Assembly (NCBI GenBank): GCA_048941015.1
Contig: JBHLNZ010000002.1
Span: 32,001 to 96,000, forward strand
Direction: 5' to 3'
DNA length: 64,000 nt
Source of the DNA: Promethearchaeota archaeon
GTDB lineage: Archaea; Asgardarchaeota; Lokiarchaeia; Sigyniarchaeales; SOKP01
Both the position numbers and the translations under genes were made by a program. How positions within the stretch are numbered: the first letter of the stretch is position 1; each line of letters opens with the position of its first letter. Positions 20,526 through 33,680 of this stretch are shown here, one piece after another. The notes under the pieces are model-generated. The model saw nothing but the letters and a program-made list of their open reading frames with translations, was not told where the DNA came from and searched no databases.

Positions 20526-21560
20526 TTAATCAATTTTATCAAAATGATTTTTAAATTCTTTATACTCCTTTTCCTTTTTCTTTTTTCTTTTTCTAATTAT
20601 TTCTAGTGGATCTGATTCATTATCTTTCATTATTAGATATTTTTCTTGAAAAGATTCGGTGAATTGTGATTTAAATTTTTCAATTTTTTCTGTAACTTCA
20701 TCGCTAAGTTTTATATCTTCTGATTTTTTTGTGGATTTAGGCTTTTTTAGTGTTTGCCTTTTTCCTTTCCGTAATTTCCTTTCAAATTCTTTGTGGGATA
20801 ATTTTAAGTAATCTTCATATAATCCCTTTCTTTCTTCTTGTTCTTTTTTTAATTTTTCAAATTCTTCCATTTCTTTGATCTTTTTTAGAATTTCCTTCTT
20901 ATTTTTAATTTCTTCATGACTTGCTTGATTTTCAAGACTTTTTAAAAATTTCTCAAAAGTTAATTCGGGATTTCTATAAAATTTCTCTTTAAATTGATCC
21001 TTTAGTAAAGGATCGATATTATTTGGTAAATTCCTTAATTGGATTTCAAGTTTCTTTTGAAGAATTTTATTATAAAAAGCATTTAGTTTCATAATGATAC
21101 TAGAAAAAATTGTGTTTTGTTTTAAAGAATCAAATAATTCAACCCATTTAACTAAATCAATTGCTAAGGTATAAGATGTCTTATCCAATATTTTAGATAT
21201 TTTTTTATTTTCTATGAAAAAAAGACCTATTAGGTGAGTATCTCCTTTTTGTAATTTCAAACTTTTTAATTTATCTTTATAGCTCTCCTTATATCTTTTT
21301 ATTAAACTATTTCTAAAATCTAAGAAACTCTTAATATTTTCATTAGTAATTTCAGTGAGATTATTATTAATTTTGTTTAAAGTTTTAAACATATTTTCTA
21401 ATTCAAGTGAATTCTGAGTATCTGGAAAAGTCAGATTTAATTTTGAGTTCTTTAATTTTTCTGATATTTCGTTTAATTGATTGATTTTTCCTTGAAGATC
21501 ATCTATAGATGAGGTTAGTTCTTTAATTTTTTCTAGATTAAATGATTGAGTCTTTTTCAT
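20526..21560 (-). CDS. Hypothetical K/E-rich coiled-coil protein
   Basis: 344-aa ORF in the operon; heptad-rich and highly charged. Confidence 0.65.
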   Translation of the reverse strand: MKKTQSFNLEKIKELTSSIDDLQGKINQLNEISEKLKNSKLNLTFPDTQNSLELENMFKTLNKINNNLTEITNENIKSFLDFRNSLIKRYKESYKDKLKSLKLQKGDTHLIGLFFIENKKISKILDKTSYTLAIDLVKWVELFDSLKQNTIFSSIIMKLNAFYNKILQKKLEIQLRNLPNNIDPLLKDQFKEKFYRNPELTFEKFLKSLENQASHEEIKNKKEILKKIKEMEEFEKLKKEQEERKGLYEDYLKLSHKEFERKLRKGKRQTLKKPKSTKKSEDIKLSDEVTEKIEKFKSQFTESFQEKYLIMKDNESDPLEIIRKRKKKKEKEYKEFKNHFDKID

Positions 21561-21581
21561 TGTTAAATTGTAATAATATTT

Positions 21582-22700
21582 TTATAATTCTCGTGGTCCT
21601 GATAAACTTTTTCTATTATTAGGCAATGGAATATTTCTTTCAATTCTTTTTCTAGAATCACTTAAAATATCTTGTCTTTCTACGTGAATAGCAGTTCCTC
21701 CAACTAATTTCAGTGAATTATAAAATAGATCGTAAGTTAAACGCTCAGTATTAATAGCTTTTAAGATTGCGACTCTAGTTCCTCTTTCTATATCTGATCC
21801 TGAATATCCGTATGTTAACTCTAATAGTCCTTCCATTTTAAATTTCTTATTAAATTCGTTCCATAATAAATTATTATCAAATTCAGAGACTTTATGCCCT
21901 ATTTTCTTTTCTAATGAACTTCTAATTTCATCAATTTTCTGATGCTCGTTATTTAAGTTATTGAATATTGAATTATCAACTCCAATTTTAGCACTTTTAA
22001 CTTTATTAAGGAATACCTCAATAATTTGTTTTCTTAAATTATAATCAGGAAATTCAAAACTTAAATGAAATGTAAATCTTCTCCAGATTGCTGAATCAAG
22101 TTGATGCTGATGGTTAGTTGCCCCAAAAATAGCCAATGGAACCCCTTCATAATTAATTCTATCAATTACTTGTAGAAAAGAGATGACAGCACGTTTTATT
22201 TCTCCTACCTCATGAATATTTGATCTTTCAGAACCAATAGCATCAATCTCATCGAAAAATAATATAAAAGAGCCTCTTTCTTTTGCTATTTCTGCTGATA
22301 AATCTACAACACGTCTAATTTGTTTGATTGTATCTCCTAACAATGGCGATACAAGGCGATCAGTTTCTACAACACAGATAGGAATATTATATTTCTTAGC
22401 AAAACCTCTTGTTAGTGAGGTTTTTCCTGTACCTGGTGGACCATATAAAAGAACAGTTAAACTTGGGTTAAGTTTTGCTCCTTTTAATTGTTCCATAAAA
22501 TCATCATATTTTTTTAAAGCCGTAAAGAAATCATCAAGAATCTCTTTTTTAACTTCATTACCTAAGATATCATCAACAGTTTCTCTAATTTCATTTGGAA
22601 AATAAACAGCTCCAAATTTCCCCATCCGGTCTTTTATTACGTCATCTGTATAGGTGGTTTTTACTTCAACTTCTTTTTTTGAATTACTAATTTTTCTCAA
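21582..22700 (-). CDS. AAA+ ATPase (single module)
   Basis: Walker A GPPGTGKT, Walker B FFDEID, sensor/SRH GATNH..LDSAIWRRF. Confidence 0.9.
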   Translation of the reverse strand: MRKISNSKKEVEVKTTYTDDVIKDRMGKFGAVYFPNEIRETVDDILGNEVKKEILDDFFTALKKYDDFMEQLKGAKLNPSLTVLLYGPPGTGKTSLTRGFAKKYNIPICVVETDRLVSPLLGDTIKQIRRVVDLSAEIAKERGSFILFFDEIDAIGSERSNIHEVGEIKRAVISFLQVIDRINYEGVPLAIFGATNHQHQLDSAIWRRFTFHLSFEFPDYNLRKQIIEVFLNKVKSAKIGVDNSIFNNLNNEHQKIDEIRSSLEKKIGHKVSEFDNNLLWNEFNKKFKMEGLLELTYGYSGSDIERGTRVAILKAINTERLTYDLFYNSLKLVGGTAIHVERQDILSDSRKRIERNIPLPNNRKSLSGPREL

Positions 22701-22715
22701 CTCTTTTTTAGTGAT

Positions 22716-24023
22716 TTATTTATTTTTCCTTTCTTTATCAAATTTTTCACAAAATTCTGCTATCTCAATAATAAAATCCTTAAGGTTATCAATTTGTGAA
22801 CCTATAAAATTAAAAATTTCTTTTCTATACTGAGGCGAATCTCTTATTTTCATTTTATTTAATCCTAAATAATTTGGGAAACAAATAAGCTTCATTAAAT
22901 AAGGGAGGATTTTCTCGTTTGTTTGTAAATCTTTGAAAATAGAATAAAAAATATTTTCATCAGATAATTTCCACTTTAAAATTCCCATATAAATTAAAAA
23001 AGAGAAATTCATTGAAATCCAATTGATTAATTCTTTTGATAAAAAACCTCTTCTCTGAGCAGCAAATGCTAAATAATATAAGATCAAAGTTTCATTACTA
23101 AATTGAGGTAATAATCTTATAGTTCCATCTGATTGTTTACTCTCACGTAAAAAGTTGGATTTCAGAAGCAAATCTACGAAATCTTCTTTAGGTGCTAAGA
23201 AAATATTGTCAATAACTCGTAAACCTATTCTTTCAGAAAGAGACGTAATTGCTTCTTCTTCTGCGTTAGCAATAGAATCAATAAAAGGTGCAAAGACTTC
23301 ATTTTTTAATATCATGGGGATTTCATAGTTCTCTTTTTCAGGAAAATCTCCAAAGTTAGGATCTAAATTGAATAAAGATGTAATATTATTTATTACTTGA
23401 TAAACTTTGGGCGTCATTCCGGGAATTTCAAAGAAGTCAGAACTTTCAATTTTTTCTCGGTAATAAGTATGAGGTTGTAAAATATGTCTTTGACATTCGT
23501 AAAAATTTGTTGAATAGCTTAATAATTTTTGATAAACTAAGTTTAGATTTTGTGCTCGTGGAAACAATTTATCTTCAATATATTTAACTAAAATATATAA
23601 ATATGTGTTCTTTAAATCTGTTTCATCAGGATTAGTTATTCTACGTAATATATTTAAAGCTTCGACTGATTCAAAGAGAAAGTCAATAATGTAATCTTTT
23701 ATATCTATTATTGGGATTTCTTCACGATATTTAACAATAAAATCCTTAATAATCTCGTACACGTTAGATCTATACATCGCAGAAAATTCAGATAAAGCTC
23801 TAACCTTTCTAATATTCCTTTTTTCTTCTTCTTGGCGTATTTTATCTAATACTTCAGTGTCAAGGAGAAGATCAGCATCTAAATCACTTATAATTCTTCT
23901 TGTTTCTCTAAGTATAGGTCGCATATGGCTTATAAAAGTAAGATATCTCGGAAGTATATCAGTCCATTTCTCTCTTTTTCTGCTTGGTTTTACTGTTCTC
24001 GAAGATTTTTTCTTATAACTCAT
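22716..24023 (-). CDS. Hypothetical protein (435 aa, largely helical)
   Basis: Long ORF with SD-like AAGGTGA upstream; part of a tightly spaced operon. Confidence 0.7.
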   Translation of the reverse strand: MSYKKKSSRTVKPSRKREKWTDILPRYLTFISHMRPILRETRRIISDLDADLLLDTEVLDKIRQEEEKRNIRKVRALSEFSAMYRSNVYEIIKDFIVKYREEIPIIDIKDYIIDFLFESVEALNILRRITNPDETDLKNTYLYILVKYIEDKLFPRAQNLNLVYQKLLSYSTNFYECQRHILQPHTYYREKIESSDFFEIPGMTPKVYQVINNITSLFNLDPNFGDFPEKENYEIPMILKNEVFAPFIDSIANAEEEAITSLSERIGLRVIDNIFLAPKEDFVDLLLKSNFLRESKQSDGTIRLLPQFSNETLILYYLAFAAQRRGFLSKELINWISMNFSFLIYMGILKWKLSDENIFYSIFKDLQTNEKILPYLMKLICFPNYLGLNKMKIRDSPQYRKEIFNFIGSQIDNLKDFIIEIAEFCEKFDKERKNK

Positions 24024-24048
24024 TAAATTATCACCTTTTTAAAACTTA

Positions 24049-25185
24049 TTATTCTTCATAACCAACTAAAACTTCAGCAAAAATATTTGCAATTTCAATA
24101 AAAATTGGGATTTCTACTCTGCAGAGATTTCCTAGAATCCACTTGTTGACATCTTTTAATAAAAAGCGGATTTGATTATGTATTTTTTTATTAACTTCTG
24201 AATCAATTATTTTTGTTAACCATAATCCCCCTCCTAGTCTATATGCAATTATTTTAATTAATGGTTCAAATAGTGGTTCTAATACTTCTCTCATCATCCA
24301 AGATTTAGGGATTATACTCATTTTTTGTTGATCGAAACTAGGATCATTAAGAATTGGGTTAGTTTCATCGACTGTAACTTTAGGCATAAAACTAAGTAAT
24401 AAAATTAATGCAAATATTGCTGAAATCCCATTAACCGTATAAGTGCCCCCAATTTTTTCAAGATCATCCCGATTGACTGCGATGTTAGATAGAAACATAC
24501 AAATAAAGATATTTCTATCAAATTCTTCAGAAACATATGCATATCCTAATTGTTCATCAATAATAAGATATTTTTCTTCAAGGATTTTTATAATCTCATC
24601 TGGAAATGTATAAAAAGTATAAATTCTTTTCTCACTTTTTCTTACATCCTTTTCAATAATCAATTCCTTAGAAATAAGACCAAACATGTCTATTAAATCT
24701 TCTAATTGTTTTTTTACATAATGCTTAGGTTTATTAGGATCGCCAAACATCGCAAAAAATTGATGGTCTACAATATGAAAGTCGTTCCTTTTACTAAATG
24801 CCTCAACCATTCTATCTATTATTGGCCCTTGGCTACCAGAAGCAATAGCTTTAGCTTTCGAGGTGACAAATCCATTTAATAATTCATTTATAATAAAATC
24901 TTGTTCATGAGTTCTTGATTTTAAGATTTGGGTAAAATTTTTTGCAAAGTCTTTAATTGTAGGAAAGAAGGAATTTTGAATTTTATCATCGATCGATTTT
25001 ACAAAGAGCTCTCCATTATTTTTTGGAAAATGAAGTTTTATATTATTTAGCCTTTGTATTAAAGCTTCTTTAGCTCCAGGTATATTATCTATATCTCTAT
25101 TTTCAATTTGTTCAATTGCTTTATTCAATCCAATTTCAAAATCCTTTAATAATTCTTTCCAGGTTTTGTCGCTAACTTCTGTCAT
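24049..25185 (-). CDS. Hypothetical protein (378 aa)
   Basis: Long ORF in the operon; possible internal winged helix. Confidence 0.7.
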   Translation of the reverse strand: MTEVSDKTWKELLKDFEIGLNKAIEQIENRDIDNIPGAKEALIQRLNNIKLHFPKNNGELFVKSIDDKIQNSFFPTIKDFAKNFTQILKSRTHEQDFIINELLNGFVTSKAKAIASGSQGPIIDRMVEAFSKRNDFHIVDHQFFAMFGDPNKPKHYVKKQLEDLIDMFGLISKELIIEKDVRKSEKRIYTFYTFPDEIIKILEEKYLIIDEQLGYAYVSEEFDRNIFICMFLSNIAVNRDDLEKIGGTYTVNGISAIFALILLLSFMPKVTVDETNPILNDPSFDQQKMSIIPKSWMMREVLEPLFEPLIKIIAYRLGGGLWLTKIIDSEVNKKIHNQIRFLLKDVNKWILGNLCRVEIPIFIEIANIFAEVLVGYEE

Positions 25186-25225
25186 AAATTCTCAATCTTC
25201 TTAGCCTATAATAATTAATATCCTA

Positions 25226-26179
25226 TCAATTTAATTCTAACTTTACTTTATTTAATGCGTTTATTAACGGTTTTAGAATTTTTTTATCATAGATATTTGG
25301 AGAAGATACTCCCTTTTGGGCTTTCCATCCCATTTGTGTACCCTCACCCATCTCTCTTTGACCATATTTCAGTATTTTACTGAGATCTCGAATCCACCAA
25401 TAAAACCTTAACCATCTTTTATTAGGATTATCTTTTGAATATATAACTACGACCGCTTTCCACTCTCCCATTAACCATTTAATTGTAATCCCACTTACAG
25501 GCAAGTAATAATTGATTGGAAAGTTACTATGAAAACGTAAATCAAGATCTTCGGCAGAGATATTAAATATTGGTTGATTATATCCTTCTAAAATAACTAT
25601 CTCTCCACAATGAGGACACTCATAGTGTGATTTCATCTTATCCATCTTTTTTTGACATTTTGGGCAAGTTTTATTCTCTATTATTCTATATTTAAAAAGA
25701 TCTATATTTTTTTCTTTTTCTTGTTCCTCTTTAGTTTTTGCTTGCTGCTTTCCATACTTTCCCTTCCAATTCCAAATTTCATCAAAAGAGATCTCAATTT
25801 GTTCCAATGCTCTTATTAAATTTTCAAGAACGTGCTTATCATATATTTTAAGCATTCCAGCATGTTGATAACTTTTCCACCAAGAAAGTCTTACATATTT
25901 TTCATCTTTTAAGAAGGGGCTATGGCATATTAAAACAGCTAATAAACGATTTTCTGTTTTGCTTATTGTAATCCCTTTCTCACATACTTCATATTCTTTA
26001 TTGAGGCTGACGTTATTATGAAAATATTCTCCATCTTGAAAATCCCCTTCTTCAACTTCATCCTTTTCTTTTCTTTTTGAAATTTCATCTTTTTCTTTAA
26101 TAATTTTTCTACATTGAGGACATTGAAAAATACCTGCTACTAATGGTTCCATATCAATATTACATAAAGGACATTTCAC
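25226..26179 (-). CDS. Protein with two tandem [Zn-ribbon + PC4/YdbC-like] repeats
   Basis: CPLC..CPQC and CPKC..CPHC, each followed by GITI...R.[SY]WW...IYDK..L..LI.AL. Confidence 0.65.
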   Translation of the reverse strand: MKCPLCNIDMEPLVAGIFQCPQCRKIIKEKDEISKRKEKDEVEEGDFQDGEYFHNNVSLNKEYEVCEKGITISKTENRLLAVLICHSPFLKDEKYVRLSWWKSYQHAGMLKIYDKHVLENLIRALEQIEISFDEIWNWKGKYGKQQAKTKEEQEKEKNIDLFKYRIIENKTCPKCQKKMDKMKSHYECPHCGEIVILEGYNQPIFNISAEDLDLRFHSNFPINYYLPVSGITIKWLMGEWKAVVVIYSKDNPNKRWLRFYWWIRDLSKILKYGQREMGEGTQMGWKAQKGVSSPNIYDKKILKPLINALNKVKLELN

Positions 26180-27294
26180 TCTGAATCATCACTACTGGTA
26201 ATAAGTAATCTTTCATAATCGAGATTTAAAAGTTTTAATTCTTTTCTATTAAATTTCGAAATTTTTTCATTTAATTCTATAACATTACTCCTTAATTCAA
26301 TAAGAGAGTCTTGAATATTATTTATGATGTTGTCTTCATTAAATGAGACTTTTTCAATAAATTTAAGATAATTATATTTTTTTTCTTTTCCAGAATAAAA
26401 TCTTTTGATACCTAATAATTTAGTTTCAATATTCTCTGATTTAAATCTAAAATCTAAAAGTGATAATAATTTTGAATACCAATGCTTAAAGATTTTATTA
26501 TTCTTATCAATTTTTTCAAAATTAAATTTCTCTGGAAGCTCTACTTTTTCATCCTTTAGAGATTTAATAATATCTTTTTGTTCCTTTATTGCTCTAATTA
26601 TTTTTTTTATAATGGGCAGATTATTTAATATTGGATCAAAAATTTCAATAAACTTAGCAATCTTGTCTTGAATTTCCTTAAATCTTTGATAAAATCCTTC
26701 AATAGTAATTTCAATTTTTATCGTTTGATAAACATTACCAAATTGATCAAGGATGATGTAAAGATCATCTGATAAAGTATAATCATGTTCTCCAATTTCA
26801 GAAATAAGATGATGTATTACATTAGATCTTTCACATCTAACATCTTTTAGCTTTGGTAACGCTAAATTGAAATTTCTGCGTGTTAAATTTTTAAATTTTT
26901 TGTTAATTATTAAAAATAAGGTATCAGCAGGTACAGAAATTATGTCATTTTCAATGGTGATCGTTTCTTCTCCTAATTTAACAATAAAATCTTCATCTTT
27001 TTGCTCAAATTCTCTAACACTTCTAATATTTTTGAATAAACCCAAATCAATTGTGATTTCAATAAATTCTTGATTCCAAAAGTTCAAAATATTAGTTTTA
27101 TATATTTCATCTAATTCTAAAATCTTCTCGTAGGCTTCTATTATTTTTTTATTAGTTAAATTTTTGAATAAGTCGTTTCTTATAACATATAAAAATAAAA
27201 CGATATATCTCATATCAATATCATCGAGAATTTTCTCGATTAAGTCTTTATCATATTCCATTACTAAATTCTTATGTTCCAAACCTAAAATCAA
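26176..27294 (-). CDS. Hypothetical protein (possible wHTH + coiled coil), first gene of the operon
   Basis: 372-aa ORF; 4-bp overlap with the next gene. Confidence 0.65.
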   Translation of the reverse strand: MILGLEHKNLVMEYDKDLIEKILDDIDMRYIVLFLYVIRNDLFKNLTNKKIIEAYEKILELDEIYKTNILNFWNQEFIEITIDLGLFKNIRSVREFEQKDEDFIVKLGEETITIENDIISVPADTLFLIINKKFKNLTRRNFNLALPKLKDVRCERSNVIHHLISEIGEHDYTLSDDLYIILDQFGNVYQTIKIEITIEGFYQRFKEIQDKIAKFIEIFDPILNNLPIIKKIIRAIKEQKDIIKSLKDEKVELPEKFNFEKIDKNNKIFKHWYSKLLSLLDFRFKSENIETKLLGIKRFYSGKEKKYNYLKFIEKVSFNEDNIINNIQDSLIELRSNVIELNEKISKFNRKELKLLNLDYERLLITSSDDSE

Positions 27295-27472: not shown

Positions 27473-28054
27473 ATGGGAAGAAGAAAAAGAAAACAGCAGA
27501 CTTATAAACGCGTAAAAAAAGTTCCTAAGATTTTCACTTGCCCAAACTGTGGGGAAAAGTCAGTAAAAGTGGAAAATATAAGGAAATCAGCAATTGCTAC
27601 TGTTAAATGTGGGCATTGCGGTTTAACTAAAGATGTATTGGTTAACTCTATTTCAGAACCAGTGGATGCTTTCGGTGATTTTATTGATATCTATTATGCT
27701 GATCAAGAAATTCAGAGACTAGAAAGACGTATTGCTAAATTAAAAAAGGATAACCAATGGGGGGAGCTTGCTCTTTCCTATTCAATTTTAGCAGATTTAT
27801 GTAAAGCAAAAGCTGCTGAGTTATTAGAAGATTCTGAAAATGTTGATGAAGATGAAGTATTAAGATGGAGATCAAAAGCTGAACAGTATAAGAAGCTAGA
27901 AAAGGAAGCATTACTACAACTAGAAACTCTTGAATTAGAAAAAGGTATTAAAACTGATGAAGAGTCATTATTTTCTGAACATGATGAAAGTGATATAAAA
28001 AAAGAACGAAAAATAAATGATATCTTTGATGATCCAGGATTTTTAGAATGGTAA
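27473..28054 (+). CDS. elf1: Transcription elongation factor Elf1 with long C-terminal extension
   Basis: MGRRKRK...FTCPNC...CGHC...EPVDAFGDFID is the Elf1 signature; about 115 extra helical/acidic residues follow. Confidence 0.85.
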   Translation: MGRRKRKQQTYKRVKKVPKIFTCPNCGEKSVKVENIRKSAIATVKCGHCGLTKDVLVNSISEPVDAFGDFIDIYYADQEIQRLERRIAKLKKDNQWGELALSYSILADLCKAKAAELLEDSENVDEDEVLRWRSKAEQYKKLEKEALLQLETLELEKGIKTDEESLFSEHDESDIKKERKINDIFDDPGFLEW

Positions 28055-29779
28055 ATTAGGTTTTAAAATTCTAATTTTTACTTTTGCAGGGATATATTTC
28101 CAAATAGGTAATTTTACAACAAACTGAAAAAATCGATTCATACTTAATTTATTTTTTAATATAAAATAGCTCCAATTACGAAAAGCTAAGTTATTAAAAA
28201 GGTGCATCAAGTTTACTCCAAAGATATTGTATCTAGAAGCAAGAAAACTTGCAAAGTATGCTCCAAATCTTTTAGTTTGAGGAATTGATTCTGGATATAC
28301 AGATTCTGAGAGAGCTCTATTAAATATTTCATAAATCGAGAATATCGGAATTAGATTATTCAGATTTTCTTCTACTTTTCTACTGTAATTTGGATTATCT
28401 AAAGATAAATTAGATAACTCATTTAATTTATATATAGCAAATTTGTAGTGTTTTTCTTTAAAGGAAAACCACATTTCTTCCATAGTAACTCTTAGATTTT
28501 TTAATATATTAAGTAGTTTTTTTTCATCAAAAGTAAAATGATATTTTTTTTCATAATATTTAATATATAATAGGAATATTGAATCAGGTATTTGTTTTTC
28601 AAAGTGATTAGTGTTATACCATTCTGAGAAGAAATCAATATCGTATTCTGTGGGAGTGTGAATTGTATGGGTATTTAAGGGAGTATTCCATATTAATTCA
28701 AGTAATTTTTCCATAAGTTTGATGGTATTAGTAAATTTCTCAATTATAGAATAATTTTGCTGCTTTTTAGGATTTCGAACTGATTTAGCTTTCGAGCGTT
28801 TAAATCGAATCTTAATTTTTTCGGTTATTTTTAATTGTTTAATAAATTCTTTCTTTTTTTTTTTATAGAGAATGATCTTTTTAATTAATAATTGTTTAAG
28901 CTTCATCAATTCTTTAATGTAAGAATAAAAGTCCACATTATATTTATTTAAAATTTCATGATAGCTAATTAATGGAATTTCAATATAAGGTCTATGTATT
29001 TTTGAATCAATTTTCATAGCATGATCTCCAATAGAATAGGAGAAAATAATCTTGTGAAGAACTTCTTTTAAATTCATGAAATTTCCCAATTTTTTTGGAT
29101 CATTCGTAAAATACCCATGCAAAAGGGTATCAATTCCCTTAAACACATTATTCTCATATTCAGAGATAATTACAGATTCAAACTCTCCTGGATGATGTCT
29201 TTTGATTTTAAATCTTTTTCCTACTAAAAAAATTGCTTGATTTGCTCTGTGGCAAACAGTGTGGCTCCATTTTAATATAGGTTCAAGAATCTTACCATAA
29301 GTGAGGTTATAACCATAAAATTCTGGTCCAAAATATATTGGAAATCCAAATCCACGAGAAGTAGAAAATGTAAACTGAAAAATGTTTCTTGTTTTCTCTC
29401 CTTTTAAAAATCCGGGAAATTTATAGTGTAAAGCAAATCGTGGGTATAATGCATCAAGCCCTAAATTCATCCATGCTTCAAATAGAAGTATGCTATCAGG
29501 GAATTTAAAGGAGTCTATTTTGCTTAATAAATTGTCACTTAAAGTATTTAATAAAGTGGGGATAGATTGAAGCCAGTTTTTTTCTATCTCAAACTTTTTT
29601 GCTCCTTTATTGAATTTTTTTAATAAAAGTGTCGTAATTTGATTTTGCAAACTAGCTTTTTTAAAATAATAATTATTTAAAACTCTAATAAAAGATGTTA
29701 TTTCTAATATTTGACGTTGAAGATCGTGAGTAACTCTGACATATAATGCTTGTTCAGAAAGATTTGAATTATGTAGCAA
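28043..29779 (-). CDS. Hypothetical protein (578 aa)
   Basis: Long ORF, no recognised motif. Confidence 0.6.
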   Translation of the reverse strand: MLHNSNLSEQALYVRVTHDLQRQILEITSFIRVLNNYYFKKASLQNQITTLLLKKFNKGAKKFEIEKNWLQSIPTLLNTLSDNLLSKIDSFKFPDSILLFEAWMNLGLDALYPRFALHYKFPGFLKGEKTRNIFQFTFSTSRGFGFPIYFGPEFYGYNLTYGKILEPILKWSHTVCHRANQAIFLVGKRFKIKRHHPGEFESVIISEYENNVFKGIDTLLHGYFTNDPKKLGNFMNLKEVLHKIIFSYSIGDHAMKIDSKIHRPYIEIPLISYHEILNKYNVDFYSYIKELMKLKQLLIKKIILYKKKKKEFIKQLKITEKIKIRFKRSKAKSVRNPKKQQNYSIIEKFTNTIKLMEKLLELIWNTPLNTHTIHTPTEYDIDFFSEWYNTNHFEKQIPDSIFLLYIKYYEKKYHFTFDEKKLLNILKNLRVTMEEMWFSFKEKHYKFAIYKLNELSNLSLDNPNYSRKVEENLNNLIPIFSIYEIFNRALSESVYPESIPQTKRFGAYFASFLASRYNIFGVNLMHLFNNLAFRNWSYFILKNKLSMNRFFQFVVKLPIWKYIPAKVKIRILKPNLPF

Positions 29780-29941: not shown

Positions 29942-30403
29942 TTATCCTTGTTGCTTTCTTCTACTAAATAATTCCTTTAATTCCCCCATTATTGCACCTC
30001 TTAATGTTAAAGGGGTAGCAGGCCGAGCAGGACCAGGTCCTCCCGGAGGGCCGCCAGGTGGAGGTGGAGGACCGCCAGGTGGACCACCAGGTGGTGGCAG
30101 AGGGCCGCCAGGTGGACCACTAGATGGAGGAGGAGCGCTAACAGGTGCAGATGGAGTGGATACCATAGGGGTAGCTCCAGCACCTCTTGTCTTTAAAGCT
30201 GCCACGTCATTATTCATAGTATTGATTCTAGATTCCAGATTGGAAATTTTTTGATTCAAAGTTGCTAAGGATTGATCGACCAAATCAGGAATCCTTAAAA
30301 TCATCATCATCATTTTTTCGACAATGTCTCCAAACGCATTTAATTTTTCTTCAATTGGGGCTCTTCGTGTCTCTTGCATAAAATTTGCGAATTCTTCTGC
30401 CAT
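29942..30403 (-). CDS. Coiled-coil + polyproline + C-terminal amphipathic/basic helix protein (WAVE/WASH/VASP-like architecture)
   Basis: LATLNQKISNLESRI coil; (G)GPPGGP-rich tract; GAIMGELKELFSRRK terminus; SD-like GAGAGGA upstream. Confidence 0.75.
   Translation of the reverse strand: MAEEFANFMQETRRAPIEEKLNAFGDIVEKMMMMILRIPDLVDQSLATLNQKISNLESRINTMNNDVAALKTRGAGATPMVSTPSAPVSAPPPSSGPPGGPLPPPGGPPGGPPPPPGGPPGGPGPARPATPLTLRGAIMGELKELFSRRKQQG
30029..30134 (-). repeat. GC-rich imperfect repeat encoding GPPGGP/PPPPP units
   Basis: Recurrent ccgccaggtgga/ccaccaggtgg units within the 153-aa CDS. Confidence 0.7.
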
Positions 30404-30548
30404 TTTCCTCTCTCAATAGTTATTAATATTGAATACGACTAGTATTTTTTTTTAATAATTATATATTTGATATGTTTAATAAATTTAAGTTCATCTGAAT
30501 TAGTAGAAATTCAAGTTACAATTATAAAAAAAATAGATTATTTTAAAT

Positions 30549-31181
30549 TTAACTTGATTTGTTAACTGAATTTTTTAAAATTATCCATAAATTATCAAGT
30601 TCATCTCTTACTTCTATAAATTGGTGGATCTTTTTAAGAAGAACATCTCTCGCCCGATCAAAATCTCTTTGAAAATCGTTTAATTCGGCTTCTAAAAGCT
30701 TCATTTTATCGCCTTCCATTAAGTCATTTTTTTTCTTTTCAACTGTTAGAGCTTTTTTAATAACAGCAGCTCTTTTGTTTGCAACTTCAATTAAAGCATC
30801 GGCTAATTCTTCTTTCTTTTGAATGAAATATTCCTTATTTACAATTAAATTTTTGATAGCATCAATATAGCCATTATTAACTTTAATATATTCTTCATTT
30901 TTTCGAATGATATCATGAAATAGATTTACTTCTTCATCTTTTACATTAGCTCTTTTCTCTCTTACTAAAGTTTGCATTTGTTTTAAAACATCACGAAAAG
31001 ATCTATTAAGCATATCTCGTTCGACATTAGCTTTAGTTAAATCATCAGCATACTTTTTTTGAGAACTAATTAGAGCGCTTTGGGCTTTTGCCAATTTTTT
31101 AATTTCTTTAACTAGATCTTTTTCCATACTGGCTAATTCCAGTTCATCTTCATGGGTGATTATAGGACTCATTTTAGACAT
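30549..31181 (-). CDS. All-helical 210-aa protein, BAR-domain-like
   Basis: Three long amphipathic helices; the C-terminal KRAAVIKK...EKKKNDL..DKMKLLEAELNDFQRDFDRAR pattern resembles SNX/Vps5 BAR helices 2-3. Confidence 0.5.
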   Translation of the reverse strand: MSKMSPIITHEDELELASMEKDLVKEIKKLAKAQSALISSQKKYADDLTKANVERDMLNRSFRDVLKQMQTLVREKRANVKDEEVNLFHDIIRKNEEYIKVNNGYIDAIKNLIVNKEYFIQKKEELADALIEVANKRAAVIKKALTVEKKKNDLMEGDKMKLLEAELNDFQRDFDRARDVLLKKIHQFIEVRDELDNLWIILKNSVNKSS

Positions 31182-33527: not shown

Positions 33528-33680
33528 TTATTCATTTGCTCCAAGAGCTTGCTTTACTTTTTCCAACTCTTCCATACGTTTCTTTTTCTCTTCTTCGCGG
33601 CGTTTTAATTCCTCCTCATCTACTTTTTGTAGACTGACTCCTTTCTTAATCTCTTCCTGCAATTCTTTATCTATAGGCAT
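33528..33680 (-). CDS. 50-aa WH2-motif microprotein (below the ORF-track cutoff)
   Basis: Manual translation MPIDKELQEEIKKGVSLQKVDEEELKRREEEKKKRMEELEKVKQALGANE*; upstream AAGGTGTTGAGGA SD-like sequence; higher GC than the flanks. Confidence 0.75.
   Translation of the reverse strand: MPIDKELQEEIKKGVSLQKVDEEELKRREEEKKKRMEELEKVKQALGANE

Follow-up and report, generated by a model that had tools for sequence, protein, structure and literature searches.

Asgard archaea possess actin, profilins and gelsolins, but no starter or elongator of actin filaments at membranes has been described in them, and nucleation machinery is not yet known for these organisms (PMC9433394). How membrane signals were connected to actin before eukaryotes is the question addressed by the protein family reported here. 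When an antibody to Lokiactin was used for co-immunoprecipitation in L. ossiferum, an ARF GTPase was enriched together with a profilin and five gelsolins (PMC13716822; 2026), and two BAR proteins were detected below significance in the same experiment (PMC13716822). Loki profilins are reported not to bind VASP polyproline, and Heimdall and Thor profilins bind it weakly, with Kd values of 0.3-3.3 mM (PMC8410842). Outside the Asgard group, arcadin-2, a regulator of Pyrobaculum crenactin (PDB 5LY3), binds the hydrophobic groove of crenactin through its conserved C-terminal helix with a Kd of 31 nM (PMC5173319).

The window analysed in this study is a stretch of 64,000 nucleotides from a Promethearchaeota archaeon (contig JBHLNZ010000002.1, positions 32,001 to 96,000), and coordinates given without a locus name refer to it. 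An earlier note, made from the sequence alone, had described the open reading frame at 29942..30403 on the minus strand as a minimal WAVE/WASH/VASP-like protein. This ORF is present and carries the coil, the GPPPPP tract and the end helix as quoted in that note. It begins with ATG and encodes 153 amino acids followed by a stop; SLATLNQKISNLESRI occupies residues 45-60, the Pro/Gly tract residues 91-118 with GPPPPPG at 111-117 (30053-30073, minus strand), and GAIMGELKELFSRRK residues 136-150. An AT-rich spacer of 145 nt (30404..30548, minus strand; GC 0.12-0.19) separates the gene from its upstream neighbour, and this spacer contains GAGAGG, a Shine-Dalgarno-like motif shortly before the ATG. 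The Pro/Gly tract coincides with an island of GC 0.66-0.68 in surrounding DNA of ~0.2-0.3 GC and is underlain by imperfect 12/33-nt DNA repeats. A 105-amino-acid ORF on the opposite strand was rejected as a mirror artefact of the gene. The ORF, its translation, its homologues and the phylum survey together describe a free-standing protein composed of a coil, a proline arm and a putative docking helix.

Analysis of homologues revealed a widespread family. A word-indexed search retrieved 176 homologues at E<=0.01 (best E 1e-89), and an exhaustive one, clustered at 50% identity, yielded 104 representatives; the named homologues are all "hypothetical protein" entries from Asgard MAGs. With a 52-member profile the family was identified in 229 of 301 Asgard genomes, including 77 of the 90 high-quality genomes, and in 27 of 30 families. 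The 153-amino-acid protein is real and undescribed, and it is found in most Asgard archaea. Relatives share only ~25% identity outside the C-terminal motif, and alignments showed that the protein has all the parts by which the family is defined, namely the conserved N-module, the Pro-rich disordered arm and the SLRGAIMxELKxLFxKRK end helix. The genome to which the window belongs has a single copy of the family, in the free-standing form, and no GTPase fusion. A contig titled 'Candidatus Nanopelagicaceae bacterium' (L062, DATKTW010000134.1) also has the family gene, at 75% identity; this bin is probably mislabelled or contaminated.

An AlphaFold2 model built on the 52-sequence alignment predicted helices at residues 2-14, 17-73 (pLDDT above 90) and 134-152 (pLDDT 75-90), with residues 74-133 disordered. 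The short N-terminal helix (residues 2-14; 30362..30400, minus strand) carries an AEEF..F motif, and A2, E4, F5 and F8 are invariant among close relatives. The long helix is modelled as a single 57-residue helix made of two unlike halves. Its N-half (residues 17-44; 30272..30355, minus strand), with the pattern EEKLNAFGDIVE..M..L.IPDLVDQ, shows invariant columns and a mean conservation of 2.61 bits/column and recurs in the fusion proteins P0146, P0171, P0153 and P0181 described below; it is probably a specific docking surface. The other half (residues 45-73; 30185..30271, minus strand) is variable, with hydrophobic residues at 3-4 spacing (L46, L49, I53, L56, I60, M63, V67 and L70). From the high-confidence helix model and the profile matches to the PDB, this half, which is the stretch resembling BRK1, is presumed to be an oligomerising coiled coil.

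The helix is followed by a Pro/Gly/Ala/Ser-rich arm (residues 74-126; 30026..30184, minus strand) with a Pro-rich core at 91-125, predicted to be disordered (pLDDT ~47-60) and containing the GPPPPPG sequence. The arm varies in length and composition across the family. Of 121 close homologues, 98 have a run of at least five consecutive prolines, as against 10 of 28 diverse representatives, hence the profilin-type proline tract is a feature of the Loki-type clade and not of the family as a whole. A Foldseek search with the monomer model returned two rows only (E 8.7), as expected since the monomer consists of one long helix and disorder, and residues 1-76 gave no usable match among the named clusters of the ESM Atlas.

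The C-terminal motif RPxxPxSLRGAIMxELKxLFxKRK (residues 127-150; 29954..30025, minus strand) has the highest conservation in the protein and overlaps the predicted C-terminal helix (residues 134-152; 29948-30004, minus strand). The earlier note had made conservation of this helix in homologues a test of its reading, and the helix proved to be the best-conserved block, at 2.99 bits/column compared with ~1.9 for the variable coil and the arm/linker. K143 is present in 52 of 52 members, E141 and L142 in 51, F146 in 48 and R135 in 47 of the 52, and the RPxxPxS lead-in before the helix is conserved as well. The end-helix motif alone was found in 75 of 151 Asgard genomes, nearly always in ORFs of 130-200 amino acids or in GTPase tails. 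The helix has a net charge of +3 and a moderate hydrophobic moment (muH 0.31; family range 0.18-0.47), and the conserved R135 and R149 are located on its hydrophobic side. Because of the near-invariant charged residues, the position of the two arginines and the moderate muH, the motif fits a protein-protein peptide better than a lipid-binding helix.

The end helix may resemble the F-actin-binding block of VASP and the C helix of WASH. Comparison with described actin-binding motifs gave the following results. The WH2 model (PF02205), which describes a helix followed by LKKV, found no match at E<=10 when the terminal 45 residues of four members were scanned, and a whole-genome scan with PF02205 had no match at the 153-amino-acid gene. 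A phmmer search of PDB sequences with the tail found no actin-binding protein and nothing relevant, and a Pfam scan of the tail alone found nothing. The C-terminus is basic (SRRKQQG; KRK in the family consensus), without Trp or an acidic element of the VCA type, which binds Arp2/3. An EVH1 domain is absent, and Pfam VASP did not match the 153-amino-acid protein or the 52 members.

The same building blocks were found in fusion with other domains. In the Arf/Gtr1-RagA-like GTPases P0158, P0200, P0179 and L140 the entire module serves as the tail, with residues 307-424 of P0158 aligning to residues 15-150 of the 153-amino-acid protein. The arm and helix also form the tail of P0194, and in L139, from the same genus, a Ras-family G domain is followed by just the end helix. 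The Arf-like fusions have long N-terminal extensions instead of the Arf N-terminal helix. The N-module alone is fused to the Ras-like GTPases P0153 and P0181 and to gelsolin domains, P0146 matching Loki 2DGel (7whg, E 9e-11) and P0171 matching 7c2f (E 4.5e-4); the gene for P0146 lies directly 3' of tandem Ras/Arf GTPase genes. Fusions of the end helix are all to GTPases (and weakly, to one integrase-like protein) and none is to an actin-binding domain. The integrase-like case is a 596-amino-acid protein (L141:251-2038, plus strand) in which a Phage_integrase domain (E 5e-13) precedes a long arm rich in Gly, Pro and Ser; its end helix is of a similar kind, ..MGELKALLARRRK.., and matches the end-helix profile weakly (E 4e-4). 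Papers on Asgard Arf GTPases make no mention of a tail of the SLRGAIMxELKxLFxKRK type, and the module-bearing GTPase tails are undescribed in the literature searched.

The partner gene directly upstream (30549..31181, minus strand) encodes a 210-amino-acid protein identified as BAR-like and three-helical from AlphaFold2, Foldseek, VIA and synteny. Its model (pLDDT 90.4) has helices at residues 10-76, 82-152 and 157-209. In Foldseek the top matches are arfaptin BAR domains (TM 0.61-0.66), and VIA gave Z 13.4 for arfaptin over 186 aligned residues and 13.1 for FAM92A, with BAR domains making up most of the top 40; further structural matches are SNX, APPL, endophilin and IRSp53. Pfam BAR did not match this protein. 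As modelled, the neighbour superposes on solved BAR domains as a three-helix antiparallel bundle of ~200 amino acids. The BAR-like gene is located directly upstream on the same strand in all 76 of 76 related species-representative loci, with a median spacer of 133 nt.

Two distant lineages have other neighbours: there the family gene is close to a V4R + Robl_LC7 protein (L045:4060-4842 and L047:6591-7499) and an apolipoprotein-like helical-repeat protein of ~1100 amino acids (L045:1-3151 and L047:7568-10939); L047 also has a SNAP-like protein. An hhalign comparison of the BAR-like family with the 216-amino-acid upstream gene in L045 found no relation. In its own genome the 153-amino-acid gene does not adjoin actin, profilin or gelsolin, and the nearest profilin-like match is ~42 kb away. 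Directly downstream is a 578-amino-acid ORF (28043-29779, minus strand) with no Pfam match, and a gene of 551-578 amino acids takes the same place in the relatives L001, L005 and L006, not in L003. Further along (20526-27294, minus strand) are conserved genes of 372, 317, 378 and 435 amino acids without a Pfam family, then an AAA ATPase, in an order kept in related contigs. Elsewhere in the window, a 50-amino-acid ORF (33528-33680, minus strand) contains LQEEIKKGVSLQKV, of WH2/thymosin type by eye, and then a charged helix. Two related loci have this ORF in the corresponding acetyltransferase/pelota interval with 84-86% identity, and the Pfam WH2 model has no match to it.

We propose, with somewhat less than even confidence, that the protein is a small, Asgard-specific multivalent adaptor with arms that end in a docking helix. 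The variable heptad half would make a parallel homo-oligomer, giving each particle at least two arms. The N-half, with its conserved ..FGDIVE..IPDLVDQ.. pattern, may serve as a second docking surface that ties the hub to small-GTPase/BAR-type membrane machinery, and through the end helix, a short peptide, the protein would dock on a partner that is itself very conserved. Actin is our preferred and most likely candidate for this partner, a leading choice that still falls short of an even chance. By analogy with WH2, VASP-FAB and the end helix of arcadin-2, the helix would lie in the hydrophobic cleft of actin, and members of the Loki-type clade may additionally recruit profilin-actin through GPPPPP. 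In this way the protein would bring actin to, or enrich it at, places on the membrane that the BAR-like neighbour and the GTPases mark out, following the working logic of Ena/VASP or of the proline/WH2 region of WASP-family proteins, reached without detectable homology. Overall, our analysis suggests a good but unproven candidate for the connection of the archaeal actin skeleton with membranes and small GTPases.

Actin is favoured as partner because the motif is conserved residue by residue, including its charged positions and the arginines on the hydrophobic side; because the N-module associates with gelsolin domains; because the Lokiactin co-immunoprecipitation enriched an ARF GTPase, with BAR proteins below significance; and because arcadin-2 provides a precedent. 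The support for an actin context from the gelsolin fusions, the BAR-like neighbour and the GTPase fusions is indirect. Other results argue against actin. The end helix is fused to GTPases and never to actin-binding domains, and its sequence gave no WH2 match and nothing relevant in the PDB search. Long proline runs are clade-specific, and the profilins of the Loki group reportedly do not bind VASP polyproline. The gene itself is not beside actin, profilin or gelsolin.

Among the alternatives, the one that survives best is a membrane tether, which we regard as rather unlikely. Here the end helix with its KRK tail would be a membrane-targeting amphipathic helix on a flexible linker, comparable with FtsA/MinD or with the hypervariable region and lipid anchor of Ras/Rab, so that the coiled-coil hub, and the GTPase in the fusions, would be anchored to the membrane beside the BAR-like protein. 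The arrangement of a linker and a C-terminal amphipathic basic helix with net charge +3 is consistent with such a role, as is the place of the helix in the Ras-like and Arf-like fusions, where it sits at the position of the membrane anchor of eukaryotic Ras/Rab; in the Arf-like fusions, long extensions moreover stand in place of the Arf N-terminal helix, and the conserved neighbour is predicted to have a membrane-binding BAR fold. Lipid-binding helices, however, usually keep their character and not their exact residues. In this family E141 and K143 hardly vary, the RPxxPxS lead-in is kept as well, R135 and R149 are on the hydrophobic side, and the hydrophobic moment is only moderate, all of which argue against a tether.

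Unlikely as well, and ranked next, is an adaptor of the GTPase network without a direct tie to actin, in which the end helix would dock on a small GTPase, on a roadblock/longin regulator or on the BAR-like neighbour, and the protein would act as effector or scaffold in membrane trafficking. The occurrence of the helix otherwise only on Arf/RagA-like and Ras-like GTPases points in this direction. So do the V4R + Robl_LC7 and ~1100-amino-acid helical-repeat neighbours in the two distant lineages, the position of one gelsolin-fusion gene after tandem Ras/Arf GTPase genes, and the best match of the BAR-like neighbour to arfaptins, which bind Arf, Arl and Rac. The gelsolin fusions of the N-module, however, suggest actin, and the genome of the window has only the free-standing form without a GTPase fusion.

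True homology between the N-terminal coil and BRK1/HSPC300 (or CCDC53/HSBP1) is very unlikely; under that reading the protein, as a homo-oligomer that promotes nucleation, would be ancestral to the coiled-coil core of WAVE/WASH. Several results do lean this way. Comparison of residues 1-76 with BRK1 in hhalign gave a probability of 63.5% (score 25.9, P 6.8e-5) over 45 columns (residues 29-73 with BRK1 23-67), in which the conserved IPDLVDQ was aligned to IADFLNS of BRK1; reversed profiles gave 7-10% probability, and the best of 40 heptad-block shuffles reached a score of 23.0 (16.0 +/- 3.1 overall). This ORF, through residues 45-69, is also the best match of the BRK1 profile in the genome of the window, and CCDC53, HSBP1 and WASH_WAHD appear faintly below the Pfam threshold. 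The scores are nevertheless below significance: that best match has E 0.13, and in a profile search of the PDB, BRK1 (3p8c_E) reached E 0.32 (14.4 bits), below some 48 other matches, mostly coiled coils, the top ones mostly trimeric. The BRK1 alignment, assembled from database sequences, is shallow and metazoan only. Over 121 Asgard genomes the best matches of the BRK1 profile are unrelated proteins, and the family or look-alikes appear in a handful of genomes. The best Asgard match of all is a 141-amino-acid AbrB/SpoVT-like protein (L050:603-1025, minus strand; L051:370-792, plus strand), which scores E 1e-4 via KISDFFAIINCRSC; the BRK1 profile therefore matches easily by chance.

The Pfam results agree with this picture. 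No family reached threshold on the protein or on the 52 members, and 10 diverse members likewise gave only sub-threshold coiled coils; the generic families Baculo_PEP_C, DUF1664 and NPV_P10 rank above CCDC53 (8 of 52 members), with HSBP1 and WASH_WAHD lower. The ATL residues that give this copy its BRK1 look vary across the family, and BRK1 itself has neither the proline arm nor the end helix. BRK1 assembles into homotrimers and, together with WAVE and Abi, into a heterotrimeric coil, of which the mostly trimeric PDB matches are at most a hint in this family. We know of no WAVE or Abi partners in Asgard archaea. By sequence, the likeness to BRK1 appears slightly above a generic heptad background and far short of homology. 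The layout claimed in the earlier note (an oligomerising-type helix, a proline-rich arm and a conserved amphipathic basic end helix) was thus borne out, whereas its homology to BRK1/WAVE was not, and the idea of a BRK1/WAVE ancestor in the N-terminal coil was left with weak scores (E 0.32 in the PDB search, 63.5% in hhalign) and a noisy reciprocal search. It is a distant prospect that the protein would be the missing Asgard factor for actin-filament assembly, in which the end helices of the hub (with GPPPPP-bound profilin-actin in the Loki-type clade) would nucleate or elongate Lokiactin at membranes marked by BAR and GTPase proteins, with the coil as forerunner of the BRK1/CCDC53-type WAVE/WASH core. 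A chance ORF across a GC-rich repeat, which the placement of the Pro/Gly tract on imperfect repeats within the GC island might suggest, is refuted by the conservation data, as there are hundreds of homologues, clear purifying selection and conserved ends on either side of the repeat, together with conserved synteny and a ribosome-binding site, and its probability is next to nil.

For the question of how membrane signals were connected to actin before eukaryotes, the family offers a cheap and direct experimental handle, because it is near-universal in the phylum, has ~150 residues, is paired with a BAR-like gene, is built into GTPases and has an N-module in common with gelsolin proteins. Should actin prove to be the ligand of the end helix, the protein would be the first archaeal adaptor of VASP/WASP type; should the ligand be a membrane or a GTPase, the helix would define a new targeting signal of Asgard small GTPases.

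Comparison of the protein with known systems revealed likenesses of different kinds. BRK1/HSPC300, and analogously CCDC53 and HSBP1, share a single long helix of ~57 residues, with 45 columns aligned at weak scores; BRK1, however, is a coil only, of 75 amino acids, whereas the protein reported here continues into a Pro-rich arm of 60 residues and then the conserved end helix. Tethers of the FtsA/MinD type likewise end in an amphipathic basic helix carried on a disordered linker, and differ in that the 153-amino-acid protein conserves exact acidic and basic residues and places arginines on the hydrophobic side. With Ena/VASP proteins the likeness lies in a presumed oligomerising coil, a proline tract of GPPPPP type and a short basic helix of amphipathic character. 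Unlike the C-terminal tetramerisation coil of Ena/VASP, the coil is N-terminal, an EVH1 domain is missing and the proline tract is not family-wide; homology was not detectable in the Pfam VASP and WH2 scans. The tails of the Asgard Arf/Gtr1-RagA-like and Ras-like GTPases are true sequence relatives that share the helix/coil, the Pro-rich arm and the SLRGAIMxELKxLFxKRK helix, and the difference is that in the 153-amino-acid protein the module stands alone, without a GTPase domain. Arcadin-2, compared here by design and not by sequence, has the same plan, in which an unstructured, non-conserved linker connects the core to a small C-terminal helix that is conserved (PMC5173319). Whereas arcadin-2 is encoded in the arcade cluster beside crenactin, the gene for the 153-amino-acid protein lies beside that of a BAR-like protein.
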